DNA of 64,000 nucleotides from assembly GCA_039189765.1 (NCBI GenBank), contig JBCCYL010000029.1, positions 6,494 to 70,493 on the forward strand, read 5' to 3'. Below are positions 6,509 through 23,680 of the stretch, in pieces. The stretch's first letter is position 1. Each line of letters begins with the position of its first letter. Below the pieces are notes generated by a model that worked only from the letters and a program-made list of their open reading frames with translations, was not told the DNA's origin and made no database searches. The DNA comes from Cyanobacteria bacterium P01_F01_bin.150 (GTDB taxonomy: Bacteria > Cyanobacteriota > Cyanobacteriia > CAKZMO01). The position numbers were made by a program, and so were the translations under genes.

Positions 6509-7516
6509 TCATCGTCGAGTTGTCTGATGTTCGTCACTGCGAGTGTGGGTATTGATAGGGTTCCGGGATCGATAAAAATCAATGTCCGCTCGACGTAAGC
6601 GGAGTTGAATATCTTCCAGCATTTTACGATTTACGGACAGGACATCGGCTACTAACCCCAATACCCATAACTGAACTCCCACTAAGATTAGGATTGCAGC
6701 CAAAATCAAGCTAGGAGCGCGTACCCGTGTGGGATCATCAAACCAGTAGAGCAGGAGCCAGCGTAAGCACAGTGCCATGCCTACTCCAAAGGGTACGCCT
6801 CCAAAAACAGTAAAAAACCGCATCGGTCTGTACACCATAAAAATGCGGAAAATGGTGAGAATAGACCGTTGAATATAAGTGGGAATACTTTTTACCAAGC
6901 GAGACGGACGCAAATCCCCATTTGTCCGTATGGGCACTGATGTAATCACCATCCCTTTTTGTCCTGCTTGAATAATCGTCTCCAGTGTGTATGTATATTC
7001 ATTAAACACATTTAATTGGATCGCTGCGTGACGGCTCATCGCTCGGAATCCACTGGGAGCATCAGGAATATCCGTACTGCTGGCTAGGCGAACAACCCAG
7101 CTACCCAAGCCCTGTAAAAATTTTTTGGTCGGAGAAAAGTGAGGAATGGATTGAATAGGTCGTTCCCCCACCACAATTTCAGCATCTCCCTGAAGAATGG
7201 GAGCGACTAACTTTGGAATATCTGCTGCACAGTACTGATTATCAGCATCAGTATTGACAATAATGTCTGCTCCAGCTTTCAATGCGGCATCTATTCCAGC
7301 CATAAACCCGGCTGCTAAACCCTGATTATGTTCAAAGCTCACTATATGGTCGACCCCCCACTCTTGAGCGACTTTAGCCGTGCGATCGCTACTACCATCA
7401 TCAATAACCAGCCACTCTACCGTATCGACTTCTGGTAAGTGGCGAGGTAGCTCAGCCAAAGTAATGCCAAGAGTTGCCTCTTCGTTGTAGCAGGGAATTT
7501 GAATAATTAACTTCAC
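6509..7516 (-). CDS. Glycosyltransferase family 2 (DPM/GtrB-like) with C-terminal TM helices
   Basis: IPCYNEE, DDGSSD, DAD motifs; two C-terminal hydrophobic helices. Confidence 0.92.
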   Translation of the reverse strand: MKLIIQIPCYNEEATLGITLAELPRHLPEVDTVEWLVIDDGSSDRTAKVAQEWGVDHIVSFEHNQGLAAGFMAGIDAALKAGADIIVNTDADNQYCAADIPKLVAPILQGDAEIVVGERPIQSIPHFSPTKKFLQGLGSWVVRLASSTDIPDAPSGFRAMSRHAAIQLNVFNEYTYTLETIIQAGQKGMVITSVPIRTNGDLRPSRLVKSIPTYIQRSILTIFRIFMVYRPMRFFTVFGGVPFGVGMALCLRWLLLYWFDDPTRVRAPSLILAAILILVGVQLWVLGLVADVLSVNRKMLEDIQLRLRRADIDFYRSRNPINTHTRSDEHQTTRR

Positions 7517-7889
7517 AATATTTCGCAGGTCTACCGTTTATGTTGTCGCATTAAAGCGAAATCTAAGCCCTGGATGACAAGATATAGATGTTAAGACTAT
7601 CTCCGATCAGGGGAGCAAAGACAAGAAATGGAGTCGTTGGTAAAGCTATTGCTGATCCTATCCCTGATAAAAATACTTGGGGATCGCTGAATCCGTATAA
7701 GAGTTTCTTACTTAAACAGAAAAAACGTAATCTTGATTACATCCAAACTCTAATCTTTTTTTTAGAATTTGGCATGATGCATTGGGCAGACATGGGCCAT
7801 AATGCCTGTTAAACCAGCTTATACAAAATATGATGGCTCTTTGACTCTACAGCCTGATCAACTTTTAAGATAAGGACAACGCATTTGTA

Positions 7890-8399
7890 ATGGAAAATAT
7901 TGCTGATAGTTTCGCTAACCTATGTGATTCCTACATCACACTGGCAGACCGGTTTAATCAACTTGATGTGGAACACATGACTTTGAAAGAAAAAGTGGTG
8001 CCTTTGCTAAAGACCTTGAAAAGTTATCAGCAGGCAATAGTAACCCTTCAATCTGAAAAGCAGGTTTTACAACAGAAATTGCAAGGAACTCAAGAAGAAT
8101 GTAAAGTTTTGGCTGCTAAAAATGATTCTCTTAAAGTATTAGAGCCATTGTTAAAGGATGAAGTCATCACTTTGTTAGCAGATGCCACAGAGCAAGCCGC
8201 TTTAGTGAAGGAAACAATCAGTGAGATGGATAGCAATCATGCTCCTGATCTAAATGAAGATGAAAAAAGCTTGCTTTCTATATTCTATAGCGATCCCGAA
8301 CGGTTTTCAGCGATTCACCACCAGCCATCGTCTCCTGGTTCCGATTCAACCTTTGCAAGCAAGTTTGCTGCACCCTCTCCGGACCCGGCACTTGTGTAA
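7890..8399 (+). CDS. Hypothetical coiled-coil protein
   Basis: 169-aa ORF with heptad-rich sequence and an upstream AAGGA. Confidence 0.75.
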   Translation: MENIADSFANLCDSYITLADRFNQLDVEHMTLKEKVVPLLKTLKSYQQAIVTLQSEKQVLQQKLQGTQEECKVLAAKNDSLKVLEPLLKDEVITLLADATEQAALVKETISEMDSNHAPDLNEDEKSLLSIFYSDPERFSAIHHQPSSPGSDSTFASKFAAPSPDPALV

Positions 8400-8606
8400 G
8401 GCTCAGAAGCGCTCCCCCTCTTTTGTTCTTGAAAAGGTTTTGAAACGTAAGTGGGGGAGTCAAAACGCATAAAATTTTTGCTCCAGCGCCTGAGTTTAAT
8501 GCTGGTTTGAACCAACCAAAAATTTTTCTTCTTAGCGTCCCCTGCTTAATGGTTTTAATGTCGTTACAATTTCGGGGCAGGTGAATAAAGCGTAGAAGGG
8601 AAATCT

Positions 8607-9176
8607 TTGGAAATGCAGGTTGAGTTATTACAAGCTACTTTAGTTGAGCTTTTCGGCGACGGTCTGGGGGGAAATGCGGTTGATGGTTGGGTAATTAGTG
8701 ATAGTGGTAGCCAATTACTCATTTTATTGTCAGCCGATCAGACTTGGTTACGAGTAATGATTTCAATTGCAACCGAAGATGAAGCGCAGCCTTATCTTCA
8801 GCAGCTCCTGAAAGCTAATTTTGATGATACCCAAGAGGTGCGATACGCTATTTCAAATAAGGTGTTGTGGGGTATTTATCAACATGATTTAGAGGGGTTA
8901 GGCGTCGCGACGCTGAAAGCAGCTATTGCTCGTCTGATTGACCTTAAACAAGATGGTTTGAGTAATTGTTTTCAGCAGGTTGTGGAAGGCCAGATCCGCC
9001 AAATAATTTGGGTATCAAAGCAACAGGGACAAACGTTGGAAGCAACTATCCAAACGTTAGAACGCTTTTATGCTGAGGGAATGTTGGGTGGACTGGAACA
9101 ACCCAAAGAAGATAAAGAATCGTTTCTGAATGCATGGCGTTATCAATTGAATAGACTATGGGATGAGGTTGAGTAG
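8607..9176 (+). CDS. Hypothetical protein, YbjN/CesT chaperone-like N-terminal domain
   Basis: LLKANFDDTQEVRYA..LWG pattern recalled from a conserved cyanobacterial family. Confidence 0.7.
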   Translation: MEMQVELLQATLVELFGDGLGGNAVDGWVISDSGSQLLILLSADQTWLRVMISIATEDEAQPYLQQLLKANFDDTQEVRYAISNKVLWGIYQHDLEGLGVATLKAAIARLIDLKQDGLSNCFQQVVEGQIRQIIWVSKQQGQTLEATIQTLERFYAEGMLGGLEQPKEDKESFLNAWRYQLNRLWDEVE

Positions 9177-9332
9177 GGTAGTGTCTCGATTCAGGAGCGT
9201 TTTCCTGTCAAATCTGCTTATTTCTGGTGTGTATGTGAGCTTAGCTTGTTTTCATTTAGCCATTAATACGGGTGAAAGCGTAGCAAGATCCAGTAAAATC
9301 GACTAGTATGCACTACCTGATTCCTCCTTTAT

Positions 9333-9962
9333 ATGGAATGGCACACCACTGATGCTAAAAGCTTACGCCTGATTGATCAGGAAATTGGTGATCATGCGTT
9401 TTCGCCTGCTGAATACGAAATTGTTCGCAGAGCAATTTACGCTACCGCAGATTTTGAGTACAAAAATCTGATTCGATTTTCGGATCATGCTCTGCAATCC
9501 GGGGCAGCTGCTCTTGCTGCTCGTAGCACTGTTGTGGTTGATGCTCCTATGGTACAGGTGGGTATTTCGGCGGTTATTCAACGCACATTTGCTAATCCGG
9601 TTTACTGTAGTACCGATACTTTGACGCGGCCTCAACGCACTAAAACGCGTTCAGCATGGGGAATCGAAACATTATCTGCTCGATATCCAGAGGCCATTTT
9701 TATCGTAGGGCAGTCTCAAACTGCTCTCCTTTCGCTGATTGAGCTAATCGAAGCAGATAAAATTCGGCCCGCATTAGTGATCGGCTCACCCGCAAATTTT
9801 CTGGGAGTTGATGCCCTTGGGGATCGATTTCGCAGCACCTCCGTGCCACATATTCGTATCAAAGGTCGTAAAGGCAGTGTGGTGGTTGCGGTTGCTTTAA
9901 TGAATGGTTTGGTAGATTTAGCTTGGCAGGCCTATGGTCGAGAGACCAATGGCTTAAGTTAA
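9333..9962 (+). CDS. cobH: Precorrin-8X methylmutase-like protein (CobH/CbiC family)
   Basis: EYEIVRRAIYATADF, PALVIG and GRKGS motifs; several catalytic motifs are divergent. Confidence 0.82.
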   Translation: MEWHTTDAKSLRLIDQEIGDHAFSPAEYEIVRRAIYATADFEYKNLIRFSDHALQSGAAALAARSTVVVDAPMVQVGISAVIQRTFANPVYCSTDTLTRPQRTKTRSAWGIETLSARYPEAIFIVGQSQTALLSLIELIEADKIRPALVIGSPANFLGVDALGDRFRSTSVPHIRIKGRKGSVVVAVALMNGLVDLAWQAYGRETNGLS

Positions 9963-10114
9963 AGATCCTCTATGAGTTTTTTCATCAAAAAGAAACATTG
10001 CACAATTCCGTTGAAGCAATCAGCTTGATTTATGATGAGTGGACGCAACATGTCTTCGAGCTGTGCCCATAAATGTTGCGATGCCCTGATGTTCGCCCCC
10101 TGGAGTATTCATCT

Positions 10115-11443
10115 ATGGATGATCGAGAGTTCCTACGATTTTTTGATGCCTGTGATCCGAGCCGCACTTTAATTCCCACTGAAGCAGAGGATCAAAAGTA
10201 TTATGTTGATTTTGCCTCGGTGCGAGGTGGCCGGATTATTAAGACGTTAGAGCGCACAATTTTAATGCAGGCTCGTCTAAATAAGCCCACCTGTCAACTC
10301 TTCACTGGACATATTGGCTGTGGTAAGTCAACAGAACTGAGGAAACTCCAAGCGGATTTAGAAGAACAAAATTTCCATGTCGTATATTTTGAATCCACTG
10401 AAGATTTGGACATGGCCGATGTGGATGTAACAGACGTTCTGTTAGCGATTACTCGACAAATCAGTGTCAGCTTAGGAGAGATCGGCATTCAATTAAGTCC
10501 TGGTTATTTTGAAAATCTCTTCGGTGAAATGGTTGATTTCCTGGGTGCCCCCATTGAGTTATCAGCACAGGCTAAGTTCTCGTTGCCGTTGGGGTTAGGT
10601 GAGATTTTAGCCAAAACGCGAGAGAGTCCGACGCTACGGCAGCGCCTACGGCAATATTTAGAACCCCAGACTGAAAAAATTCTGACAACGCTCAATAAGC
10701 ATGTTTTAAAGATTGCAAACAAGAAGTTAAGGAACCATAATAAGCGAGGCTTAGTGGTTCTGGTGGATAACTTGGATCGGGTGGATAATCGCAAGTTGGA
10801 GGGGGCAGAGCGATCGCAGCCCGAGTATCTTTTCGTTGACCGGGGTGATCAACTGCGAAAACTAGACTGCCACGTGGTGTACACCATTCCTCTATCGCTG
10901 ATTTTTTCCAACGATTACCAAGCGTTACTGAATCGTTTTGGTGGGGGTATTGCGCCCAAAACGTTGCCTATGGTGCCTGTAATTCAGCGTAATGGGAATG
11001 ACCATACGGAAGGGTTGACCTTACTCAAAACAATGGTGATGGCTCGGGCCTTCCCAGGTGTTGATATGGCAATCGTATGTCAGATCAGTTACGTTGAACA
11101 AATATTTGAGTCAGAGGCGACGCTCGATCGACTTTGTACTATGAGCGGCGGTCATGTTCGCACCCTCTTAGGAATGCTTTATCGCTGCTTGCAAGAGGCT
11201 GATCCTCCCATCGATTTGGAGCTACTGAACCGTGTCATCCAAGAATATTCAGATCGGGCCTGTTTGGCGGTGACCCCTGATGAAAAAGAAATGCTAGAAA
11301 TCGTGCATCAAACCAAAAAAGTGACGGGAGAAGAGGGACATGAAACATTATTACGGAGCTTGTTTGTTTTTGAATATCCTGGTGATCAGAATGGAGGTTG
11401 GTTTGACGTTAACCCACTTCTAATGTCATTGATTAACGTTTAA
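10115..11443 (+). CDS. P-loop ATPase (AAA-like), partner of the downstream STAND protein
   Basis: Walker A GHIGCGKST, Walker B VVLVDNLD, SGGHVR, C-terminal WFDVNPL. The ORF track starts at 10073. Confidence 0.88.
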   Translation: MDDREFLRFFDACDPSRTLIPTEAEDQKYYVDFASVRGGRIIKTLERTILMQARLNKPTCQLFTGHIGCGKSTELRKLQADLEEQNFHVVYFESTEDLDMADVDVTDVLLAITRQISVSLGEIGIQLSPGYFENLFGEMVDFLGAPIELSAQAKFSLPLGLGEILAKTRESPTLRQRLRQYLEPQTEKILTTLNKHVLKIANKKLRNHNKRGLVVLVDNLDRVDNRKLEGAERSQPEYLFVDRGDQLRKLDCHVVYTIPLSLIFSNDYQALLNRFGGGIAPKTLPMVPVIQRNGNDHTEGLTLLKTMVMARAFPGVDMAIVCQISYVEQIFESEATLDRLCTMSGGHVRTLLGMLYRCLQEADPPIDLELLNRVIQEYSDRACLAVTPDEKEMLEIVHQTKKVTGEEGHETLLRSLFVFEYPGDQNGGWFDVNPLLMSLINV

Positions 11444-11567
11444 TGAGTCTCTATTCACACTGCTATAGAGGCTAAGTATCAGTTTTTCTCAATATTGCTT
11501 TATTCCTGATTCTCGTTTGCTATGATTTATTACATTTATTTATGTCGTATTATTTGGACGTTAGATC

Positions 11568-14500
11568 ATGTCCCAAAGTGTAGCCTCCGAAAACGAACGA
11601 ACTCTGAAAACACTCTGCCGCACAATTCGTTTAACTAGTCAACGCAGATTTGAACTCATCATTGTACGGTGTAACTATCAAAAACTACAGAAAAGACTGT
11701 TATTCCAGTTGCACAAAAATTGCCCCATTCCTTTTGAGGAATTGGCACTACCAAGAACATCCCAAACCCTATATACGTTAATTGAGACCTCTTATACAGA
11801 AAAATGGCCAGAGGCTCTTTGTGTTTGGGGGTTTGAGGAAGTAGACGATTTAGAGACTCTATTATTAGCGACTAATCAAGTTAGGGAAGAATTTAGAAAA
11901 AACTTCAAATTTCCATTAGTCCTATGGTTAAATGATCAGATTCTAACTGAATTAATTCGGCTTGTTCCTGATTTTTATAGTTGGGCAACGCCGCTATCTT
12001 TTAATCTGTCTAATCAAGAATTAGTGGATTTGATCAAAAGTAGTTCTGATACCTTATTTGAACATGCTTTTAACGCCAGCGATCAGTATCCAGTCAGAAA
12101 AACTGTTTTGGAACTAGCCGTTAATGCCCCTAAGTTGCAAGAGCTTAAAATTGCTAAAAATGAGTTAGAAAATCGAAATTATCCCCTAGAGGCTGAACTA
12201 CAAGCGAGTATTAACTTAGCATTAGGGCGTGATTTCTATCGTCGAGATCAATTGGGTAAAGCTGAGGAAAAATACCAACAAAGCCTTGCCTATTGGGCAG
12301 ATACTCAACAAACTCAACGATCGGCTATGGTTTTATTCCACCTCGGTCTTTGTTATTGGCGTAAAGCCTATCTTGAACGATTAGCGCCGGAAATGTGTTG
12401 GAAATTAGCTAAAAAGTGCTTTGCAGATTGCTTAGAGAGTTTAGAGAGTTTAGACGCAGATCAATCGCAACGGCTTGTTGCTAATTTTATTGGCCAACTC
12501 GGTGAGGTATTGCAGCAGCTTGGCGAATGGGATGCACTCCAAACGTTAGCAGAAAATTCTTTAAGGTTACACCAAAAATTTTCCCATCCAGCAAGATTAG
12601 CCAGAGATTGGGGATTTCTGGCATCGATTGCTCTGCATCACTCTGACTGGGACAAAACGTATCTCAATGCCCAAAAAGCGCTGCAAGCTTTGGAGGACTC
12701 AAGAGAAGGCGATCGTCAACGTAAAGGACTATATTTATGGCTCTTGGCCCAGGCTCAGAAACAGCTTGGGGCAATTGATGGGGCGATCGATAGCTTGGAA
12801 GCTGCAAAGAAAACGGGCCAGTTCCAAAATGATCCGCTCATTTATATTCAAATTTTAAAGGCATTACGTGATCTTTATTTTCAACAAGGTCGCTATATCG
12901 AGGCGTTTGATGTTAAACAAGAACAACAAGCGGTTGAAAGCCAGTATGGGTACCGGGCTTTTATTGGAGCTAGTCGCTTACGGCCATTACGGGACGTTGG
13001 ATTAGCCTTACTAGCGAGTGAACCATCGGAGGCGATCGCCCAAGAATTATCGGTTTCAGTCCGCCATCAGGACATCAGCAGTTTGTTGGAACGACTGGCA
13101 CGCCCTAATTATAAATTGACCATTATTCACGGTCAGTCTGGAGTTGGCAAAAGTTCTATGATGAGCGCGGGTTTGGTGCCTACGCTCAAGCACAAAATTA
13201 TGAATAGTCGTGACGTTGTCCCCGTTTATTGCCAGTTTTATGGCAATTGGGAAGAGCACCTATGCCAATGTATGAATATAAGCCTAGAACCCTATCCAGA
13301 TGCACGGAGAAAAGAATTAAAATCGTCGCTTGATATTCTCCACCAAATCCGTCGTAATGATACTCAAAACCTCTTGACAGTATTAATTTTTGATCAGTTT
13401 GAAGAATTTTTTATCAACTGCGAGACACCAAATAAGCGTAGACCTTTCTTTGATTTTTTAAACCAGTGCTTTCAACTTCCTTTTATCAAAGTTTTACTAG
13501 TCCTTCGAGAAGACTACTTACACTATCTACTAGAATATGAACGGCTTCCTAGCAATAGCTATATTACTCAAAATATTCTCAAGCAAACAAATCGTTTTGA
13601 ACTGATCAATTTTTCTGAAGAAGATACAAAAGAGATTATCACTAGATTAACGGAACGATCAAGTATTACTTGGGAACCTCAACTCGTTGATGCTGTTGTT
13701 CATGATTTAGCTCAAGAGCAAGGAAGTATCCGCCCTATTGAATTACAAATTGTTGGTGCTCAACTTCAAGCTGAAAATATTAATACTCTCTCTGCCTATG
13801 AAGACAAGGGAACAAAAGATAAATTAGTTCAGCGCTATTTAGAAACAGTTGTTGAAGACTGTGGCCCTGAAAACAGGAAAGCGGCTAATTTAATATTATA
13901 TCTCCTGTTAGTAGATAAGGATACACGTCCACAACGAACAAAAGAAGAAATTGGAATAGAGCTAAAAAGATTAGCTATTGACTTGATTGAAGAATCAAAT
14001 CGTCTAGATTTAGTGCTCCAAATATTTGTCAAATCAGGTTTAGTTTTCCTTCTTCCAGAGACTCCTTCCAGTAGATATCAACTTGTTCATGATTATCTAG
14101 CTACCTTTATTCGGCGTCAGCAGCAACCTGATATCAATGCACGGATTGCACATTTAGAACGTGAGAAGAAAAATCTTAAACAGGTTATCACTGCATTAGA
14201 ACAAGAACAGGAACAACGTTTTAAGACGGAAGAAGAACTTAATGCAACTGCTAAAGAACTTACTGTAACAGCACAAGAACTGAAGAAAACGGCACATACT
14301 AATAAAGAGACTAAGAAGAGGCTAGCAGTTTGGTCAGGAGTTTTGGGAGTGGCTTTTTTAGTTGTATCAGCTCTAGGATTAACGGCCTACTTTAGGTTGC
14401 AACAAACACGTACGGAGTTTGATCTAGAACAAAAAAGTTGGGAAGCTTTACAACAGTTTCACACTCAACCACTACAAGGCTTAATTGCAGCCATGAATGT

Positions 14501-16508
14501 GGGTATTCAATTTCAAGAATTTAAAGACAAAAATAGTGAAACGACCCTTACGACTCCCATCTTTGCGCTACACAAAATGCTGAGCAATATCCGGTTACAG
14601 AACACGCTCGCTGCACATGATGCTGAAATCTATGCAGTAGCTTTCAATGACAGTAGCAATCATTATCTTGTAACAGGTTCACAAGATACAACAGCTCGAC
14701 TGTGGAATTTAAAGACAGGTGATAGTATTCCTTTAGAGGGGCACGAGAAAGCAGTTCTTGATGTGAGCTTTAGCCCTCAGGGTCAGCATATTGCGACGGC
14801 ATCCGCAGATGGAACGGTTAAATTTTGGAACTATGATGGCACAATCCATCATGAGTGCTCAATGCAGGATGATGTTTTGAGTATTGATTTCAAAAAAAAT
14901 GGAGACTTTATAGCTGCTATTGGAAACGGGAAACTCCAACTTCGAAAACCAGAATGTGAACTAATTTCTGAAGGCATCACAGAGTCAAAAACACCTGTCT
15001 TTAGTATAGACTTTAGTGATGACGAAAGCATGCTTGTAGCAGGCGATGAAAAAGGCAGTGTTAGTATCTGGCAAGTGAGTCAAAATGCTCTTAGCCAACT
15101 CAAAAGTTTAAACCTCCATAATCAGTCGGTGGAAGATGTAGCATTCAGTCCTGGCGACAGCAGTGTTGTAACAGTTTCCTCTGACGGTACAGGTAATATT
15201 TGGCGTCTTCAAGATGATGACATTTTGAACTTTGAGGCAAAAGGTGCCCCAATAAGAAGTATTACTTCAATATCTTCTCAGCGTAGCCGAGAAGATATTG
15301 TAACTTCTTCAGATGACAACATGGCTAGGCTATGGGATCTTCAAGGACAAGAAAAATTTAGCTTTAAAGGTCATAGGAATGTCGTTAGAGATGTTGCCTT
15401 TGATTCAACAACACAAACTTTAGCAACAGTTTCTGATGATAGATCGGTTAAACTGTGGAACTTAAATAATAATCTATTTAGACCTAGAAGAATCAACCTT
15501 CTTCACGAGTCCATTGATGCTTCTAATATTAATGTTTCTAGTGTCAGCTATGATAATAATCTGTTGGCAGCATCTTCTGGGCACGGTACTATTTATATTT
15601 TAGATTTCAGAAGCAATACTATTCTAGCTAGTTTTTCACCTTATATAAATCAAAACAGAGATGAAAAACACCACATACTTGACCTTAAGTTTCATCCAAG
15701 AAATTACACACTTGTGACTGCTTCAAATTATGGTCAAGTGATTCTATGGTCACAACATGGGGAAAAAATTAAGGAACTCCAAAAATCTTATTACCCTAAT
15801 TTTCAAGATACAAAGTTAGCATTTGATTCTACTGGTACTCAGGTAGCAATTGCAAATTCAGAAGGTACAGTTCGTATTGTAAACCTTGAGGGTGAAAGCC
15901 TTGACCAACAGAAGCTCCATAATGAGAAAATCACAGATATTAAATTCAACAATGATGGTGGTATTATCGTTACAGCATCCGTAGATCAAACAGCCTGTTT
16001 TTGGCAACTGGATACATTACCTGTCTGCAGTGAAAAATATGGAAGTCAGCTTGTTAGTGTTGCTATTAATCCAGAAAATACTTTGGTTATTTCTGATTTA
16101 GAAGGGACAATTAATATTTGGCACCCGACTAAACAGCAGTCATCAAATACCGATGATATTGTGTCCTCCAGCACCCGCTCTATCAACGACATTATTTTCG
16201 ATAAAAGCGGTAGATTTGCAACTGCCTCAGCCGATGGTTCCGCAGCTCTATGGTCAGGAGAGGGTAAACCTCTAGCAGAATTTCAAGGACATCGGACACC
16301 CGTCCAGAACATCTTTTTTACTAATGATGCTCAAGAACTATTGACGATTTCTAGTGATGGTCAAATTCGTCAATGGGAAATTCAAAGTCTTGATGATCTT
16401 TTAAACGAAGGATGTGAGTGGCTCTCCAATTACTTAAGATTTAGGAAAAATAGCAAGCCTACAGAGGAGCAAAAAATAGTTAATTTTTGCTCCTCCATCT
16501 CAGATTAA
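11568..16508 (+). CDS. TPR + nSTAND1-type NTPase + coiled coil + TM + WD40 repeat protein
   Basis: TPR-like helices; Walker A GQSGVGKSS; Walker B LIFDQFEE; YQLVHDYL; TM LAVWSGVLGVAFLVVSALGLTAYF; about 14 WD40 repeats. Confidence 0.9.
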   Translation: MSQSVASENERTLKTLCRTIRLTSQRRFELIIVRCNYQKLQKRLLFQLHKNCPIPFEELALPRTSQTLYTLIETSYTEKWPEALCVWGFEEVDDLETLLLATNQVREEFRKNFKFPLVLWLNDQILTELIRLVPDFYSWATPLSFNLSNQELVDLIKSSSDTLFEHAFNASDQYPVRKTVLELAVNAPKLQELKIAKNELENRNYPLEAELQASINLALGRDFYRRDQLGKAEEKYQQSLAYWADTQQTQRSAMVLFHLGLCYWRKAYLERLAPEMCWKLAKKCFADCLESLESLDADQSQRLVANFIGQLGEVLQQLGEWDALQTLAENSLRLHQKFSHPARLARDWGFLASIALHHSDWDKTYLNAQKALQALEDSREGDRQRKGLYLWLLAQAQKQLGAIDGAIDSLEAAKKTGQFQNDPLIYIQILKALRDLYFQQGRYIEAFDVKQEQQAVESQYGYRAFIGASRLRPLRDVGLALLASEPSEAIAQELSVSVRHQDISSLLERLARPNYKLTIIHGQSGVGKSSMMSAGLVPTLKHKIMNSRDVVPVYCQFYGNWEEHLCQCMNISLEPYPDARRKELKSSLDILHQIRRNDTQNLLTVLIFDQFEEFFINCETPNKRRPFFDFLNQCFQLPFIKVLLVLREDYLHYLLEYERLPSNSYITQNILKQTNRFELINFSEEDTKEIITRLTERSSITWEPQLVDAVVHDLAQEQGSIRPIELQIVGAQLQAENINTLSAYEDKGTKDKLVQRYLETVVEDCGPENRKAANLILYLLLVDKDTRPQRTKEEIGIELKRLAIDLIEESNRLDLVLQIFVKSGLVFLLPETPSSRYQLVHDYLATFIRRQQQPDINARIAHLEREKKNLKQVITALEQEQEQRFKTEEELNATAKELTVTAQELKKTAHTNKETKKRLAVWSGVLGVAFLVVSALGLTAYFRLQQTRTEFDLEQKSWEALQQFHTQPLQGLIAAMNVGIQFQEFKDKNSETTLTTPIFALHKMLSNIRLQNTLAAHDAEIYAVAFNDSSNHYLVTGSQDTTARLWNLKTGDSIPLEGHEKAVLDVSFSPQGQHIATASADGTVKFWNYDGTIHHECSMQDDVLSIDFKKNGDFIAAIGNGKLQLRKPECELISEGITESKTPVFSIDFSDDESMLVAGDEKGSVSIWQVSQNALSQLKSLNLHNQSVEDVAFSPGDSSVVTVSSDGTGNIWRLQDDDILNFEAKGAPIRSITSISSQRSREDIVTSSDDNMARLWDLQGQEKFSFKGHRNVVRDVAFDSTTQTLATVSDDRSVKLWNLNNNLFRPRRINLLHESIDASNINVSSVSYDNNLLAASSGHGTIYILDFRSNTILASFSPYINQNRDEKHHILDLKFHPRNYTLVTASNYGQVILWSQHGEKIKELQKSYYPNFQDTKLAFDSTGTQVAIANSEGTVRIVNLEGESLDQQKLHNEKITDIKFNNDGGIIVTASVDQTACFWQLDTLPVCSEKYGSQLVSVAINPENTLVISDLEGTINIWHPTKQQSSNTDDIVSSSTRSINDIIFDKSGRFATASADGSAALWSGEGKPLAEFQGHRTPVQNIFFTNDAQELLTISSDGQIRQWEIQSLDDLLNEGCEWLSNYLRFRKNSKPTEEQKIVNFCSSISD

Positions 16509-16525
16509 ATGTAGCGTTATAATCT

Positions 16526-16819
16526 CTACCAATTAGACCAATTGTTCCAATTAGACCAGTTTCCCCAGTCAAACCTTCGAGATTGAGGTAGCACTTTACC
16601 CTTGACATAATCTAAATCCCAACCATAGCCTAATGATTGTTTTCTTACAGTCTCGACCCTTTCTCTAACCGAAGTATTTGATTTGACTGTGGCACTTTCT
16701 GCCCTAGAATTGAAGATATTAGTAATAGGGTAAAGTACAATTTGCGAAATTAAAATGGTGCTAAGGAGTCTGTAAATTTTATTGATTCTAATCATGGGGG
16801 ACAGTTTGAATAACGACAA
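16526..16819 (-). CDS. RiPP precursor 2 (GrrA/OscA-like triceptide precursor), core WGNWSNWNNWSNW
   Basis: Hydrophobic N-terminus, leader motif SVRERVETVRK, four tandem WxN plus terminal W; same strand as and downstream of the rSAM gene. Alternative ATG at 16795. Confidence 0.85.
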   Translation of the reverse strand: MSLFKLSPMIRINKIYRLLSTILISQIVLYPITNIFNSRAESATVKSNTSVRERVETVRKQSLGYGWDLDYVKGKVLPQSRRFDWGNWSNWNNWSNW

Positions 16820-17279
16820 TATTGATTGCGATACATTTTAATTATCCATATAATACAGTTAGTACAAGACGTGAATGTGACACTAGAGCAAACTGCCTAA
16901 ATTTTCTCTAGAGTTAGCCTGAAGGCTATTGATTGAAGGAAAACATTGGCTATCTTACAGTAGTCAAAACTAAAATTGTCACACAAACAGAACATAGAGC
17001 TTGTCAAGTTGAAATTAACCAACAAGGCCATCAAAATGTCATCCTGAATCTAGTATTGGATAATTCTCATATACACATATACGAAAATCTACTAGCCTTA
17101 CAGGAAATTACTCTAACTTTTCATGAACTCCCTCATTCTTTTATTAGTTCGCAAGAACTATTTATGGATTTGGATAGTAGCCCCTAGGAAAAAACTTGTA
17201 AAATACTAAGAATTTTCTACCAATATCAAACACCTTTATCATTACATACTAAATAGCTTTCATCGCTTATTTGCCCCTG

Positions 17280-17333
17280 AAAAATAGAAGAAACGCCAGC
17301 CTCTTCAAAAATGTACTCAAAGCTGACGTTTCT
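17280..17333 (-). terminator. Possible terminator downstream of precursor 1
   Basis: agaaacgccagc...gctgacgtttct imperfect stem with an A-run on its left; the loop is long (about 21 nt). Confidence 0.3.
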
Positions 17334-17556
17334 AATAAATTTGGTAGCTCAGCCTGGAAAAAAGTAATAATACCTTGTCTCAGTCAAGAGCTTTGACAAC
17401 TTGATGGATTGCCTCAAGTGCGATCGCTTTTCACCTAAATTAGTTCGCATAAACAGATTTAGGCACAAACAAAACTAAAACGGTCCACACAATATCAGAG
17501 TTCTAGTGCTAATCTGAGCAATCAATTAATGGTTTATTTGTTCTAGTGAAATAGAA

Positions 17557-17895
17557 TTACCAATTATCCCAGTTGCTCCAGTTAGCCCAGTTAGCCCAGT
17601 TGTTCCATGCGGCTTTAACTATTCGCTCTGAGTTCAGCGCTAGTGAGTAGTTTTCTGATGCAGGAATATGGTGTCCCTGCGATAAATCGTTGGCCTTATT
17701 AAACTGAGAGCTATCATTATTTTTACGAACTCGGTTAATACGTGATTTCAACTCCTGTTCTTGATGTTCTAGAGAATATTCGCTTCGGCTATAGGCAAGT
17801 GTAGCAACATTGTCAGTCAGTATCAGAGATACAGCGGCCACGCAAACAGTTAAAAACGGTGCGAAAAGTCCTGTTAGAGAAGCTTTTTGGTTCAT
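17557..17895 (-). CDS. RiPP precursor 1 (GrrA/OscA-like triceptide precursor), core WNNWANWANWSNWDNW
   Basis: Signal-peptide-like N-terminus, leader motif LKSRINRVRK, five tandem WxN plus terminal W. Confidence 0.88.
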   Translation of the reverse strand: MNQKASLTGLFAPFLTVCVAAVSLILTDNVATLAYSRSEYSLEHQEQELKSRINRVRKNNDSSQFNKANDLSQGHHIPASENYSLALNSERIVKAAWNNWANWANWSNWDNW

Positions 17896-17947
17896 GAGAA
17901 ATCAATGGGGGACGAAATGGTTACTATTGCTCTTTCAACCTTAGGAA

Positions 17948-17977
17948 TTGTGGTAAATCCTCAAGGATTTACCACAA
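17948..17977. promoter_or_regulatory. Perfect 13-bp inverted repeat upstream of precursor 1
   Basis: ttgtggtaaatcc-tcaa-ggatttaccacaa, with no U-tract on either side. Confidence 0.5.
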
Positions 17978-18090
17978 ACTTAAAACTTGAAGGAGCACTA
18001 CATTAATATTCGCTTATGCAATTATAGTTGCGAACGAAAGTACCGCCCTCAGTGACTTGTCTCACACGTAAGCGGTTCGAGTATTTAAGG

Positions 18091-18987
18091 TTACAGTTTA
18101 AAGTGTCCCCTGATTGTTAGCTGAACATCGGAGTGATTTTGGTCTAAGGTAGACCCCTCGTGAAGAATATTCTCTGTGGGAGCAATGTAGGCTTCTCCGG
18201 GAGAAATGCGTACTTTTATTACTGGATAGTTTGGGTAACGTTTTGCGAAGGCATTCTTCAACGTCAGCGGAGAGACTTTGCTTAAACTGAGGCGATTTTT
18301 ATAGAACAGATTGCGTCCTTTCCACTGCACTTGTCTCGATATTTTTAAACTATTTTCTGGGAGGAACTCTGGATGACGCAACACTATTAACATGTCTATT
18401 AGGGTGAGGTTGATGAAGAGGAAGTGGCGATCGCTCTCCCCCAAATTAATGCAAATCCGATTGGTTGATTGATGACGATATTGCAGAGGTAACCGATCCC
18501 AACTGTCCAGATGCAGGCCAATGTAGTGGCCTGCTGTCGGATTGATTGTAACAGTTGGTAAATTGGGCCAGCTAATGCCAATACCCGCTAGAGTTGGCTC
18601 TCCTTTATTGCAGTGGGATTTGAAAAACGTCAAGATCGGTTCAGTTGCTTTCCCATACTCCGGTGTGCTGAGCTGGTGATTATCGTCGGGAGTCAGTTGA
18701 CTGATATTCAATTGACGTAGAGGAGCCAAAATATGGTCTGGAACCGAGAAGATTCCGACAGTCCGACTGTAATCACTGGCTTGACGATGGGTGATTAACG
18801 TTTTGGATTGTTCTGATGATAATTCTTGCCATGTATCTTGTGGAATATAGGCATCTTTGGAAAAGGCGAGATTAGGGAAGTGGTCGGCAGTAGGTTGTTG
18901 GATGCCTGAATTAATCCATACACGAGATTTAGATACGTCCAACGTGGAATCAAGGTACAGTTGAACGCTATCCAGAAGCTGAGTCAT
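18091..18987 (-). CDS. Uncharacterised protein with HxD...H triad (putative Fe(II)/2OG-like oxygenase) in the RiPP locus
   Basis: GLHLDSWD, NRICINLG, GEAYIAPTENILHEG and TIRGHF motifs. The ATG at 18987 removes the overlap with the rSAM gene (ORF track start 19092). Confidence 0.7.
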   Translation of the reverse strand: MTQLLDSVQLYLDSTLDVSKSRVWINSGIQQPTADHFPNLAFSKDAYIPQDTWQELSSEQSKTLITHRQASDYSRTVGIFSVPDHILAPLRQLNISQLTPDDNHQLSTPEYGKATEPILTFFKSHCNKGEPTLAGIGISWPNLPTVTINPTAGHYIGLHLDSWDRLPLQYRHQSTNRICINLGESDRHFLFINLTLIDMLIVLRHPEFLPENSLKISRQVQWKGRNLFYKNRLSLSKVSPLTLKNAFAKRYPNYPVIKVRISPGEAYIAPTENILHEGSTLDQNHSDVQLTIRGHFKL

Positions 18988-19033
18988 AATGCAACCATTA
19001 ACGAAGGGGACTAGCACTACATTCTTTGCCCCA

Positions 19034-20254
19034 TCAGACTGTTGCTTTACTCTTTTCCATTGATGGGGCTGACGAAGGTACCTGAATTGCAAAGGTTTCT
19101 TCTAAATCCGCAAGAACAATGTCCGTGAGGATTTTCTTCGTATATTTACAATACATTGTTTCGGAAGAATTAAAGGAGCCGTTTTCAAAATACTTATTGG
19201 ACGGTGCGCCTCCGCCACACACGGAGAAGTACTCACATGTTTTTTTACACAACGACACTCCAGCCTGGATATCTCGGTTCATGTGCTTGAATTTTGGAGT
19301 TTGACACACCTTATCAAAGGATTGATTTACGATATTTCCTAAAATAAAATCGCCATAGACCTCACTGTCCATAGATAGAAGTTCAGGCGAAAATGTTGAA
19401 AAATCACCATTATAAGCAATATTAAGCATGGTGAAGGGCGTAAACTGGCCTCGTTGAATATTGGTTTTGCCCAAAATGGATTGTTTGGTTTCCTCTAGTT
19501 CTCTAATTTGCAGTACGCCAGGGTTTTCTTTGGTGAGGGCCAACATGCGTATCATAAACGCCTTATATTTTTGTGCGCTATCGTCTGACGACAACGAAGA
19601 TGCTTGGTGTGTGCCTTCCATTTCATCGATATTGAAGCCCACTTGCTGAATATTTTGATCTACAAAGAACTGAAACAGCTCATCAGGATAATCAAGACCA
19701 TCACGAGTTAGGACGGCAATAACGTGGAAAGGGATATTGTGCTGTTGCAGTAAACGAACCCCGCGCATGGTGTACTTATAACTGCCCAATCCTCTGCGGG
19801 TTAAGCGATAGGCATCATGTAAAAATTCTGGACCATCTAGACTCACACCAATACGGATGCCGTAGGTTTTGATTAAATCACACCATTGATCATTGATGAG
19901 TGTTGCATTTGTTTGGATCGCGTGGGTAATGAGGCGTAACCCCATTGGAGAGTTCTGATTCAGTTGTTCGATCTTTTCAAACGTTGTTTGGTAGAACTTG
20001 ACAGGCATGGTTAAGGGTTCCCCTGCGTGCCAAACCACTGTAAATTCTGAATCTAAAAACTGACTCTGAAACAGATGGGTAAAGATAGGTTCAAGCAAGT
20101 CTAGAGAAAATTCGTGCTTGAGATGGCGATCGGGTAAATAACAATAACTACAGTTCAGGTTACAAAAGGTGGTGGGTTGAATGATAACCAGTTGGATTGG
20201 ACCATAGTTTTTGCGACCATGAAACCATGTGGAGACGGTATCAAGCAAACTCAT
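19034..20254 (-). CDS. grrM: Cyclophane-forming radical SAM/SPASM peptide maturase, GrrM/OscB family
   Basis: IIQPTTFCNLNCSYCYLP (CxxxCxxC), WHAGEP, STFSPELL, and CKKTCEYFSVCGGGAPSNKYFENG...ETMYC. The ORF track starts at 20335. Confidence 0.92.
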   Translation of the reverse strand: MSLLDTVSTWFHGRKNYGPIQLVIIQPTTFCNLNCSYCYLPDRHLKHEFSLDLLEPIFTHLFQSQFLDSEFTVVWHAGEPLTMPVKFYQTTFEKIEQLNQNSPMGLRLITHAIQTNATLINDQWCDLIKTYGIRIGVSLDGPEFLHDAYRLTRRGLGSYKYTMRGVRLLQQHNIPFHVIAVLTRDGLDYPDELFQFFVDQNIQQVGFNIDEMEGTHQASSLSSDDSAQKYKAFMIRMLALTKENPGVLQIRELEETKQSILGKTNIQRGQFTPFTMLNIAYNGDFSTFSPELLSMDSEVYGDFILGNIVNQSFDKVCQTPKFKHMNRDIQAGVSLCKKTCEYFSVCGGGAPSNKYFENGSFNSSETMYCKYTKKILTDIVLADLEETFAIQVPSSAPSMEKSKATV

Positions 20255-20376
20255 AGGATTGGGGCGGTGTAAAGGACAACAAGGTAATATGTTATTCCTC
20301 TCTACAGTGTCATAGTTCTGTCCTCCTGAACACAAAACTATGACAGTTATTATCTTTATAATAGTATGCGAGCTTT

Positions 20377-20886
20377 TTACAGATTAAGACGTTTTGTCAT
20401 CCAAAGGGATTGGGGTTTGTAATCGAGCTGATGATACATGCTGAGGGCGATGTAATTATCTGTGAAGACTTGTAGGCTAATTTTGCGATCGCCCCTTTTC
20501 ATCGCCCATTGTTCAGCTTTGTCCATCAACGCAGTGCCGATCCCTTGTCGGCGATACTTAGGATAGACGTATAGCAGAAAAATGTAAGCGTGGCGATCGC
20601 CTTCAATCTGATCAATCGCATCCCCCAACCACAAACAGCCTACTGCCGTTTGACATGAGGACCGCGCAGATAATGAAAGAGTCGGTATTGGTGAAGGTGA
20701 CTGGATGTACACCCACCATAGAGGCGTATCACTAGATAAGTACTGATCGACCGTTTGGACAAGATGAGTGACGGGTTGTTTAGGATGAAGCTCTTGATAG
20801 GTCTTCTGCATGACTTTTACCAGAGACGCCCGATCCAAACTAGAGCCTCTGGTAATCTCATAACCTGGACATAATTCGTTAGCCAT
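20377..20886 (-). CDS. GNAT family N-acetyltransferase
   Basis: YVYPKYRRQGIGTALM acetyl-CoA motif; probable ATG at 20886 overlaps the stop of the upstream gene. Confidence 0.88.
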   Translation of the reverse strand: MANELCPGYEITRGSSLDRASLVKVMQKTYQELHPKQPVTHLVQTVDQYLSSDTPLWWVYIQSPSPIPTLSLSARSSCQTAVGCLWLGDAIDQIEGDRHAYIFLLYVYPKYRRQGIGTALMDKAEQWAMKRGDRKISLQVFTDNYIALSMYHQLDYKPQSLWMTKRLNL

Positions 20887-21136
20887 TCTGAACTGCGTCT
20901 TTGTCCGATGCGGGTGGAAAAGAGGAAAACTGAGCAATGGCCGTAGAGAAGGGAATGCTTGCCTGGGTAACACCAGAATTTGAATCACTACCATGCTTCA
21001 TGGTCGTTGGTTCTTCTATCGGTGCGGGCGCAGCTAAATCACTGGGTAAAAAGATTCGAGCACTCACTGCAATCATCGCAACCAAGAAAATTAATACAAT
21101 AAAGAATGGCGCGACGTACTGACGAATAAAGGACAT
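20879..21136 (-). CDS. Small single-TM conserved cyanobacterial protein
   Basis: RQYVAP + TM + SARIFLPSDLAAPAP. Confidence 0.75.
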   Translation of the reverse strand: MSFIRQYVAPFFIVLIFLVAMIAVSARIFLPSDLAAPAPIEEPTTMKHGSDSNSGVTQASIPFSTAIAQFSSFPPASDKDAVQNG

Positions 21137-21384
21137 ATCTCTAACCTACTAGTTGAACAACCAAAAAAGTGGGCTATTGCTCGAAGCCTGAATATCAGCG
21201 CTGTTGCTGAATACACCCTGATTATAGTACCAAGAAACTGCCCTATATTTTCTGGTTAGGCTCAAATATACTAGCTGTCTGGAGTTTTGCTGAAAGGTGA
21301 GTTGTAACTCAATGGTCGTTCAAAATTCAGAGCGCTATAAAATGCTAGAGGGCGATCGCGTTTATATAGCCCTGATACCTGGTT

Positions 21385-22965
21385 ATGGGACAAAGAGAAA
21401 AAACATTGGCGAAGAAGAAAAGGCACAATAAAACGGCTTTAAGCAATATGACTGTTCAGGCCTATTCAACTCCCTCTGCTTCAAAACAGGAAAAATTTAA
21501 CCGGGGACTATGGCGACAGGGTGACATCATTGAAGTAACAGTTGATGCGCTGAGTAACCGTGGTGATGGGGTTGGTCGCTGGATTGACTCAAATGCTCAA
21601 GCCAGTGTTGGGACTGATGCCGATGCTGATGGACAGAAAGGTCATCGAGTCGTCTTTATTCCTGATGCCGTACCGGGCGATCGCCTGCGTGTTCGGCTAG
21701 TCCGCGTTAAGCCATCCTACGCCCACGGCAAATTAGTGAATATTGTCAAACCTTCGTCCGAACGGATTAAGCCGAGCTGTATTGTGGCGGACAAATGTGG
21801 TGGATGTCAGTGGCAGTCCGTGAATTACGAGCGGCAGCTTCTGGCCAAATATCATGAGGTTTGTCAGTGCCTAGAACGGATTGGTGGATTTGATGCATCG
21901 TTAGTAGAACCTGTGGAAGCGTCTACCCATCTTGGCTATCGGAATAAAGTCTCCTATCCGTTAAGGCAAGCGGAGTCCAAGGCCAAGGTCCAGGCCGGAT
22001 ATTATCAAAAAGGCAGTCATAAACTCGTTAACCTTAACCAGTGCCCTGTCCAAGATCAGCGGTTGAATACATTTCTGACCGATCTAAAAGAAGATATTCA
22101 CACCCGCAACTGGTCTATTTACGATGAAAAACGTCATCAATATTCCCTGCGTCACTTGTCTTTAAGGGTCGGGAGACGCACTGGAGAAGTCTTGCTGACC
22201 CTCGTTTCCCGTGATAAATGCCTCAATGGTCTTGAAGAACAGGCTAAGCGGTGGCTGCAAATCTACCCTAACCTGGCAGGTGTCTGTCTGAACATAAATG
22301 ATCAGCGTACAAATGCCATCTTTGGTCAGAAGACATCTACGATTGCAGGACGGGGCTATATCGAGGAAATTTTTGCAGATATCTCGTTTCAGATCCATTC
22401 CACCACCTTTTTTCAAGTTAATACGGAGCAAGCGGAGAAACTACTGCGGCTTGTACAAAAAAAACTCGCGCTGACTGGAACCGAAAAAATTGTTGATGCC
22501 TACTGCGGCATTGGGACAATGACGCTTCCTCTAGCTCATCAAACCGGGCGGATGATAGGCATTGAATTTCACCCCGCTTCGATTACTCAAGCCTTAAAAA
22601 ATGCCGCATCTAATAACATTCATAACGTTGGTTTTCATGTGGGGAAAACAGAATTACTGTTGCCTCGGCTCAGGGACTTAGCTCCAGGATTTGGTATTCC
22701 CGATGTGGTGATGCTTGATCCGCCTCGCAAGGGCTGCGATCGCGCTGTGTTAGAGACGTTGCGATCGCTCCGTCCCTCCCGTATTGTTTACATTAGCTGT
22801 AATCCAGCGACCTTGGCCCGCGATCTGAAAATTCTATGTGCTCAGGAATCGATGGGTTCAGAATCTCCGTCCCAAGCTTACTATCAGTTAGAGTCGGTAT
22901 ACCCCTTTGATTTCTTTCCCCAAACGTCCCACGTTGAATCCGTTGCGTTTCTTGCTTTGGCATAA
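21385..22965 (+). CDS. rlmD: 23S rRNA (uracil-1939-C5)-methyltransferase
   Basis: TRAM domain, C..CGGC Fe-S motif, FFQVN, DAYCGIG, DPPRKG, YISCNPATLARD, FFPQTSHVE. Confidence 0.95.
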   Translation: MGQREKTLAKKKRHNKTALSNMTVQAYSTPSASKQEKFNRGLWRQGDIIEVTVDALSNRGDGVGRWIDSNAQASVGTDADADGQKGHRVVFIPDAVPGDRLRVRLVRVKPSYAHGKLVNIVKPSSERIKPSCIVADKCGGCQWQSVNYERQLLAKYHEVCQCLERIGGFDASLVEPVEASTHLGYRNKVSYPLRQAESKAKVQAGYYQKGSHKLVNLNQCPVQDQRLNTFLTDLKEDIHTRNWSIYDEKRHQYSLRHLSLRVGRRTGEVLLTLVSRDKCLNGLEEQAKRWLQIYPNLAGVCLNINDQRTNAIFGQKTSTIAGRGYIEEIFADISFQIHSTTFFQVNTEQAEKLLRLVQKKLALTGTEKIVDAYCGIGTMTLPLAHQTGRMIGIEFHPASITQALKNAASNNIHNVGFHVGKTELLLPRLRDLAPGFGIPDVVMLDPPRKGCDRAVLETLRSLRPSRIVYISCNPATLARDLKILCAQESMGSESPSQAYYQLESVYPFDFFPQTSHVESVAFLALA

Positions 22966-22966
22966 C

Positions 22967-23680
22967 TTAACGCATGCCGAGATAAAGTTCGCCGACTTTT
23001 GGATGATTTAATAGCTCGGGTCCCGGACCTTCAAAGCGATCGCGTCCCGTATCTAGTACCACTCCCCGATGAGCCATGGCCAGAGCTTTGCGAGCATTTT
23101 GCTCCACTAGCATAATCGCAGTTCCTGTTTGATTAATGTGTTGGATATGCTCCAATGTTTGGGTGACTAATGTAGGAGAAAGGGCTGCTGAGGGTTCATC
23201 CAAAATAAGCAAATCTGGATCGAGCATCAGCGCTCGGCCCATCGCTAACATTTGTCTTTCGCCCCCGGATAAGGTGCCTGCCTGTTGTCTTCGCCGTTCC
23301 AATAGCACTGGAAACACATCAAAAATTGTTTGTTTAAGAGAGTTGAGGGGCTGGTTGAGGATAAACGCACCCATTTCCAAATTTTCTTCCACCGATAGGG
23401 ATGGGAAAACATTGGAAATTTGAGGAACGTAGCATAGGCCCAGGGGCACGATTTGATTGGGTTTAAGACCTGCGATCGCCCTGCCTTTGAACAAAATATC
23501 CCCTGTATGTGGTGTTAGCAACCCAAAAATTGTTTTGGCTAAGGTTGACTTCCCTGCTCCGTTGGGACCGATCACTGCGACGAGCTCGCCTGGTCCTATG
23601 CAAAAGTTGATGCCCTGTAAAATATCTAATCCAGGCACATATCCGGCTTGGACATCAACAACTTCTAACAAAGGTTCCAT
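22967..23680 (-). CDS. Branched-chain/neutral amino acid ABC transporter ATP-binding subunit (LivF/NatE-like)
   Basis: GPNGAGKST, LSGGERQ, LDEPS, VEQNA motifs. Confidence 0.92.
   Translation of the reverse strand: MEPLLEVVDVQAGYVPGLDILQGINFCIGPGELVAVIGPNGAGKSTLAKTIFGLLTPHTGDILFKGRAIAGLKPNQIVPLGLCYVPQISNVFPSLSVEENLEMGAFILNQPLNSLKQTIFDVFPVLLERRRQQAGTLSGGERQMLAMGRALMLDPDLLILDEPSAALSPTLVTQTLEHIQHINQTGTAIMLVEQNARKALAMAHRGVVLDTGRDRFEGPGPELLNHPKVGELYLGMR

Follow-up and report, generated by a model that had tools for sequence, protein, structure and literature searches.

A probable triceptide operon with contiguous Trp-x-Asn cores and a MicC-family oxygenase gene in a cyanobacterial genome

Triceptides are a young class of peptides made by ribosomes and modified after translation (RiPPs), and the strained cyclophanes they carry are hard to synthesise. 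An operon for such peptides lies in a stretch of 64,000 nucleotides (the window, in whose numbering positions are given) from contig JBCCYL010000029.1 of Cyanobacteria bacterium P01_F01_bin.150. At 16526-20254, four co-oriented genes on the minus strand encode a radical S-adenosylmethionine enzyme (rSAM), an oxygenase of 298 amino acids (aa) and two short precursor peptides (Table 1). The first-pass annotation of this DNA had described these genes as encoding an rSAM, an HxD...H protein and two precursors with WxN motifs, and the coordinates and translations agree with it. The locus is a real triceptide operon: both of its enzymes belong to known families, and its precursors are divergent members of a known one. 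Its novelty lies in how the genes are combined and in the contiguous core; ring formation on Trp-x-Asn is known chemistry. We are fairly confident that the operon is of the GRRM/Osc kind and that its product is a compact-core RiPP of the triceptide (three-residue cyclophane) class.

Table 1. The operon, its predicted peptide features and the genes around it, in window coordinates
Feature	Positions	Strand	Remarks
rSAM gene	19034-20254	-	406 aa, ATG at 20254; longest open reading frame (ORF) from TTG at 20335
Oxygenase gene	18091-18987	-	298 aa, ATG 46 nt past the rSAM stop; longest ORF from TTG at 19092
Precursor 1	17557-17895	-	112 aa; signal-like N-terminus, leader, five contiguous W-x-N units and a terminal W
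Leader motif of precursor 1, RINRV	17728-17742	-	Family motif R[LIV]xx[IVL]
Core of precursor 1, WNNWANWANWSNWDNW	17560-17607	-	Array with a 9-bp period, 4.7 copies
Precursor 2	16526-16819	-	97 aa from TTG or 89 aa from ATG at 16795; signal-like N-terminus, leader, four contiguous W-x-N units and a terminal W
Leader motif of precursor 2, RVETV	16646-16660	-	Family motif R[LIV]xx[IVL]
Core of precursor 2, WGNWSNWNNWSNW	16529-16567	-	Translation and DNA repeat array
GNAT gene	20377-20994	-	About 120 nt upstream of the rSAM gene, same strand
Nearest ATP-binding cassette (ABC) gene	22967-23680		UrtE/LivF-like ATPase, best matches below curated cut-offs
KAP-type P-loop NTPase gene	10073-11440	+	456 aa; downstream of the operon and convergent with it
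nSTAND1-WD40 gene	11568-16508	+	1646 aa; downstream of the operon and convergent with it

Judged by its profile matches, the rSAM is a radical SAM/SPASM cyclophane synthase of the GrrM/OscB family, as the first-pass annotation had proposed. Its match to TIGR04261 spans model positions 1-363 of 363 and scores 529.2 bits (529.6 bits in a genome-wide profile search), where the cut-off is 310. The next-best NCBIfam families all stay under their own cut-offs, and the YhhB model gives 156.8 bits where its cut-off is 445. In Pfam, the protein matches PF04055 (Radical_SAM) at 58.7 bits and PF13186 (SPASM) at 22.0 bits, the latter a marginal match since the cut-off is 21.5. A CX3CX2C motif occupies C31, C35 and C38, and C-terminal Cys residues lie at 317, 336, 340, 346 and 369. 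The GrrM/OscB gene is single-copy in the 10.6-Mb genome. A review describes OscB as joining Trp-C7 to the C-beta of either Asn or Asp, and Phe-C4 to that of Asn (PMC11002830). An rSAM tree of 67 rows was built, in which characterised OscB is not placed and 5 of the 31 OscB-type loci are omitted (rSAM ORF split, or below 340 aa in length). In it, 34 classical cyanobacterial enzymes without an oxygenase make up one clade (Shimodaira-Hasegawa-like approximate likelihood ratio test, SH-aLRT, 99). The window rSAM belongs to the sister of this clade, an 11-row cyanobacterial group (SH-aLRT 88) with compact cores, in which an oxygenase accompanies 7 of the 11 rows, two rows having an identical rSAM sequence. 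The rSAM subclade of the window also includes two GrrM loci of Nostoc type, L119 (5649, +) and L121 (5657, +), which have precursors of about 90 aa and no oxygenase; these precursors keep a signal-like N-terminus and the leader motif and carry only a single Trp-x-Lys-type unit.

The second enzyme had been taken for an extra unknown enzyme, an assessment that no longer holds, as its family includes a characterised and crystallised member, MicC (9vkm). A phmmer search of Protein Data Bank chains aligns residues 4-296 of the 298-aa protein with residues 22-293 of 9vkm_A (E 3.3e-29), and no Pfam or NCBIfam family was matched. The Fe triad of MicC, H160/D162/H253, aligns with H159/D161/H276 of the window protein (H159-L-D161), the essential alpha-ketoglutarate (alpha-KG) Arg of MicC, R188, with R187, and Y244, which lies near alpha-KG, with Y267. 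In an alignment of 26 homologues, H159, D161, R187, Y267 and H276 are all invariant. An AlphaFold2 model of the protein is a double-stranded beta-helix (predicted local distance difference test 89.7, predicted template modelling score 0.89), and its top Foldseek matches are KdoO (5y9x, 6a2e) and other alpha-KG oxygenases, with 9vkm not listed. KdoO is the fold neighbour reported for MicC too, in the accessible part of the MicC paper (PMC12912966). Homology to MicC, the conserved triad and Arg, and the predicted fold together identify the 298-aa protein as a MicC-family alpha-KG/Fe(II) oxygenase. A full HMMER scan finds 1577 cluster representatives of the oxygenase family at E <= 0.001, and to our knowledge MicC is the only member with a known reaction.

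Both small ORFs downstream of the oxygenase gene are likely substrates of the window rSAM, which supports the first-pass view of two precursors with five and four contiguous Trp-x-Asn units. They lie on the same strand as the oxygenase gene, one 195 nt and the other about 1.3 kb downstream, and the DNA of both contains tgg-nnn-aay repeats with a 9-bp period. Their Trp-x-Asn runs are not a product of chance, because a six-frame translation of the genome (21,279,666 residues) has runs of at least three W-x-[ND] units only six times, of which two are the precursors and four fall on contigs C5 and C6 within simple repeats. On the minus strand of these contigs (genome G000; C6 at about 750-1419, C5 at about 73582), long period-3 W-[VI]-[DN] runs and one W-x-N run occur in one frame, and these runs look like simple repetitive DNA with a 9-bp unit, close to a contig end, and not like genes. 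The two precursor genes are separated by 737 bp of AT-rich DNA (16820-17556, GC about 0.35). All three minus-strand frames of this gap are stop-rich and it holds no third precursor, and no Rfam element was matched in 16300-21400 at E up to 0.1. Elsewhere in the genome, a GrrA-model match at C172:1879-2166 (+; locus L126) was rejected as a precursor gene: it scores 30.8 bits against a cut-off of 31, has two internal TAA stops and lies far from GrrM genes.

The precursors can be placed by their front end, in which the leader motif R[LIV]xx[IVL] comes after a signal-like N-terminus, a feature derived from 35 precursors beside classical GrrM genes. The window and 120 related loci together gave 60 precursor-like ORFs, of which 54 have a hydrophobic N-terminus and 51 the motif, at residues 16-80. 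The two are found together in 47 of the 60, as against 59 of 1432 control ORFs of 70-170 aa from the same loci, and both window precursors carry them. The maximum of Kyte-Doolittle hydropathy over 12 residues is 2.8 in precursor 1, near residue 14, and 2.3 in precursor 2. On this hydropathy profile the N-termini, which the first-pass annotation had not mentioned, would resemble Sec signals, being basic, then hydrophobic for 12-20 residues and often followed by small residues. Classical GrrA peptides near oxygenase-free GrrM genes have the same front end and continue into Gly-rich, spaced F/W-x-N repeats, as the first-pass annotation had described them. The window precursors have no Gly-rich spacers, with 1 and 4 Gly in their last 45 residues. 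The description of their cores as Gly-free is right for precursor 1; it fails for precursor 2, whose first unit is WGN. Across the related loci, precursors linked to an oxygenase (n=25) and those beside oxygenase-free GrrM genes (n=35) differ in mean Gly fraction over the last 45 residues (0.06 vs 0.33) and in the number of units directly before an aromatic residue (8.3 vs 1.1 per precursor), a comparison confounded by its samples, as the first set comes from many phyla, the second from cyanobacteria only, and relatives are non-independent. The window precursors are best read, from their sequences, as divergent GrrA-type peptides in which the Gly-rich spacers have been replaced by five and four contiguous Trp-x-Asn units.

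The pairing of the two enzymes recurs well beyond this genome. In a pattern scan of one genome per species, 159 stretches encoding a relative of the oxygenase were found and 80 were kept. An OscB-like rSAM, meaning one that scores at least 200 bits to the window rSAM and lies within 7 kb, is present in 31 of the 80 loci, 20 of which also have at least three contiguous Wx[NDSTA] units in a small ORF; a distant rSAM is present in 28 of the remaining loci and none in 21. The locus is thus not the one-off that it had appeared to be. The contiguous-core loci linked to OscB occur in cyanobacteria (Elainellaceae metagenome-assembled genomes (MAGs), Adonisia turfae, Leptolyngbya sp. PCC 7375 and strain CCP2) and in Acidobacteriaceae, Saprospiraceae, Lewinellaceae, Chitinophagaceae and one Ignavibacteriota MAG. 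In the oxygenase tree, the window protein groups with five other cyanobacterial OscB-linked ones (SH-aLRT 89), and the mic-like Mucilaginibacter proteins lie elsewhere. Because the oxygenase was the bait for these 80 loci, 401 cyanobacterial genomes were also sampled without bias. GrrM/OscB is found in 42 of these, the oxygenase in 12 and both in 4 (G000, G158, G182 and G306), each time as neighbouring genes. Among the GrrM loci fetched from this sample, 2 of 40 have an oxygenase within 6 kb.

Some oxygenase relatives are longer proteins of about 615-994 aa with the oxygenase domain at the C-terminus. Of ten that were scanned, five have GrrM/OscB as the best N-terminal family, P0241, P0332, P0341 and P0342 above the cut-off and P0279, at 307.9 bits, just under it; two have another rSAM/SPASM domain, and three match no family at E up to 1e-10. 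Such natural fusions are good evidence that synthase and oxygenase act on the same peptide. Together with the recurrence of the module in at least four phyla, they suggest that the oxygenase step is likely an integral, conserved modification. A bolder proposal would have the oxygenase evolved to attack the C-alpha of a non-Gly Trp after a ring, by terminal trimming or inter-ring cuts, and would combine this with the Sec-type N-terminus and the fusions into a separate, multi-phylum subclass of triceptides with protease-free maturation; we regard this as improbable.

Other surroundings of the oxygenase family were also seen. In two Nostoc loci, L004 (5237-11121) and L009 (5206-10040), a MicC-like oxygenase accompanies a distant rSAM (about 22% identity), L004 having two tandem oxygenases. 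Both hold a 122-aa ORF with an N-terminus that by eye is like a Nif11-type leader, and two further ORFs of 294-414 aa with a common N-terminal motif. Eighteen Microcoleus/Kamptonema-type oxygenases form a clade with no rSAM within 7 kb (L005, L006, L008, L011, L013, L014, L017, L019-L022, L024-L026, L028, L030, L031 and L065), and in L006 a 220-aa ORF with terminal Cys-Thr-His repeats lies upstream (5658-6320). The Nostoc-type locus L127 (G306:C6, 5983-9935) contains an oxygenase, a divergent GrrM/OscB (437 bits), a 68-aa precursor and, upstream, a 265-aa ORF; the precursor lacks a hydrophobic N-terminus and carries its W-x-N/D units spaced apart.

Three characterised pathways offer points of comparison. 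The cyanobacterial OscA/OscB pathway is reportedly the subject of Nguyen et al. in Nat Chem in 2020 and of Purushothaman et al. in ACS Chem Biol in 2024, and the YhhA/YhhB/YhhC pathway is said to have been reported by Sugiyama et al. in JACS in 2022. The window operon is like OscA/OscB in having an rSAM in TIGR04261 and, by the accessible text on OscB, in the Trp-x-Asn target motif (PMC11002830). It is unlike that pathway in its contiguous, Gly-poor cores, in precursors that miss the GrrA model and in the presence of an oxygenase gene. With the classical GRRM loci it shares the precursor front end, which is also found in 38 oxygenase-free cyanobacterial GrrM loci, and a C-terminal aromatic residue, common in both. 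In the Yhh pathway, the accessible text describes YhhC as an Fe(II)/2-oxoglutarate (2OG) enzyme that makes beta-hydroxy-Asp (PMC12186529). A triceptide rSAM accompanied by a tailoring Fe(II)/2OG enzyme is common to that pathway and the window operon, a likeness of reaction type; YhhB is a separate NCBIfam family.

The closest comparison for the oxygenase is the minviopeptin triceptide pathway of Mucilaginibacter inviolabilis, whose mic cluster consists of MicA, MicB, MicC and MicD (PNAS 2026, PMC12912966). According to the portions of that paper available, MicC hydroxylates the C-alpha of the Gly after the second ring, following rSAM cyclisation and ADP-ribosylation, and the resulting oxidative N-C-alpha cut leaves an amide and an alpha-keto-acyl fragment (PMC12912966). 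The same portions describe the reaction as strictly Gly-dependent, a G8A substrate being uncut, and look to a [quoted passage not shown] among MicC homologues (PMC12912966). Both systems pair an rSAM cyclophane synthase with a MicC-family oxygenase, and they have in common the Fe triad, the alpha-KG Arg and KdoO as fold neighbour. In contrast, MicB is described as PasB-like, not GrrM/OscB, and the rSAMs of three Mucilaginibacter loci (L054, L072 and L074) are only 23-28% identical to the window rSAM. The window locus also differs from mic, as far as the available text describes the latter, in having no Gly after a ring, no ADP-ribosyltransferase gene among its ORFs of at least 100 aa at 16526-20994, and Gln289 at the position of K266.

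A maturation route can be proposed from these comparisons. In the cytoplasm, the rSAM would bind the R[LIV]xx[IVL] leader and join each Trp, through C7 as in OscB products, to the C-beta of the Asn two residues on, giving five and four contiguous rings with a loss of 2 Da each. The oxygenase would then oxidise the cyclised core. By analogy with MicC, it would act on the residue that follows a ring, here either the next Trp or the lone terminal Trp. A MicC-like C-alpha hydroxylation of the terminal Trp after the last ring would remove this Trp and leave an Asn-amide, and such trimming is the reaction tentatively preferred here, although we place it somewhat short of an even chance. Finally, the hydrophobic N-terminus would route the peptide through Sec, which would account for the lack of an exporter or peptidase gene.

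Several observations weigh against this scheme, beyond the confounding of the precursor comparison. MicC needs a Gly and an ADP-ribosylated ring, and the window cores and locus supply neither. The essential basic residue K266 of MicC aligns with Gln289, R293 lying four residues on in the same strand. Two cyanobacterial loci, L107 and L117, have contiguous cores and no oxygenase within 6 kb, and neither of their genomes (G204 and G172) counts among the 12 with an oxygenase, so the oxygenase is dispensable for contiguous cores. Neither window precursor matches the GrrA model TIGR04260, a search that the first-pass annotation had proposed, or any NCBIfam family at E up to 0.1, and the signal-peptide call for the precursors is one of hydropathy only. 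A terminal aromatic residue was considered as a specific sign of oxygenase trimming; this idea is weakened, because such a residue is equally common without the oxygenase (19 of 25 oxygenase-linked and 24 of 35 oxygenase-free precursors). The number of rings, the position of the linkage and any product of the oxygenase are predictions from sequence.

In one alternative, the oxygenase would be a side-chain hydroxylase that places an OH on Trp, on Asn or on the middle residue of the ring and leaves the backbone untouched. No ring here precedes a Gly, whereas MicC cleavage is strictly Gly-dependent in the accessible account (PMC12912966), and K266 of MicC is not kept; the MicC authors themselves foresee functional diversification among homologues in that account. 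YhhC provides a precedent, by type of reaction, for tailoring of a triceptide by an Fe(II)/2OG enzyme (PMC12186529). On the other hand, the sole characterised relative, MicC, targets a backbone C-alpha by the text available (PMC12912966), and the middle residue of the ring varies (N, A, S, D or G), so that only Trp or Asn would be a constant target. Side-chain hydroxylation is accordingly held to be a rather doubtful option, second to the terminal trimming.

The abutting rings could also be read as cutting sites, with the oxygenase breaking the N-C-alpha bond at each post-ring Trp and so releasing three-residue cyclophane amides without a protease. MicC is described in its accessible text as cutting at the residue directly after a ring to give an amide and an alpha-keto-acyl fragment (PMC12912966), the locus has no peptidase gene, and in oxygenase-linked precursors a ring unit abuts the next aromatic residue far more often. 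This last correlation is striking but confounded by lineage and sampling, and the G8A substrate of MicC stayed uncleaved. Since the oxygenase is without a signal peptide, the cuts would be made in the cytoplasm, and the signal-like N-terminus would then export the first unit only, which makes little sense. Cutting between rings is therefore considered very improbable. Given these limits on the MicC analogy, terminal trimming ranks first, followed by side-chain hydroxylation and then by inter-ring cutting, and the rest of the expectation falls to other oxygenase reactions.

A further alternative concerns the fate of the peptide. The first-pass annotation had noted no GrrP, peptidase or ABC exporter gene adjacent to the operon, and none was found; the nearest ABC gene encodes an ATPase of another type (Table 1), GrrP has no match above cut-off in the whole genome, and neither the window locus nor the related loci compared hold a dedicated leader peptidase or exporter gene. 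This absence, with the conservation of the signal-like N-terminus across phyla, would also suit products that are exported, ring-stapled proteins of about 55-80 residues in the periplasm, the sheath or the cell surface, which retain the leader after the signal-peptidase cut. TIGRFAM reportedly first viewed the GRRM system in this way, as modification of a secreted Gly-rich repeat protein. However, the accessible text of the MicC paper has all characterised triceptides undergoing proteolysis before the first ring (PMC12912966), and removal of the leader by housekeeping proteases is feasible. Export as an intact stapled protein is thus judged unlikely.

The locus amounts to a minimal module of a synthase, an oxygenase and two short precursors that could yield four to five contiguous rings, and no characterised triceptide with that many contiguous rings was found in the literature searched. 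The module spans at least four phyla, namely the cyanobacteria, the Acidobacteriota, the Bacteroidota and the Ignavibacteriota, and is a good target for genome mining. Action of the oxygenase on a Gly-free, ring-dense core would reveal the reach of the family's chemistry, and a Sec-type N-terminus on rSAM-modified precursors would, if true, be a route of export that needs no dedicated transporter. The first-pass annotation had proposed an undescribed system. This stands for the combination, as a literature search, with subscription papers and supplements outside its coverage, found no paper characterising contiguous Trp-x-Asn cores with a MicC-like enzyme; it does not stand for the parts, since both enzyme families and the precursor family are known. 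A survey of rSAM-MicC pairs is given in the MicC paper, in Supplementary Figures S52-S53, and may already include the Bacteroidota clusters found here.

Upstream of the operon, the GNAT gene is the only further ORF of at least 100 aa at 16526-20994. The GNAT protein has a faint match to the model of HaaN, a cyclophane-RiPP acetyltransferase (18.9 bits, cut-off 250), and neither it, an 85-aa ORF nor a methyltransferase had a tblastn match (E up to 1e-3) in the 80 related loci. With no homologue in any of the 80 loci, the GNAT gene was rejected as a cluster member and probably lies outside the module. A scan for promoters and terminators was uninformative, with 17 and 5 sites where shuffled sequences had 12.6 and 3.7.

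On the downstream side, full-length homologues of the KAP-type NTPase and the nSTAND1-WD40 protein flank triceptide operons in the same manner in L001 (about 6905-12467 and 313-2284) and in L107 (about 7118-13053). The large protein is 43% identical over 1674 aa in L001 (partner 50-58%) and 28% identical over 1799 aa in L107 (partner 45%). The window genome has seven KAP/nSTAND1-WD40 pairs, one of them beside the triceptide operon, and the position of this pair could reflect conserved synteny or a functional link.

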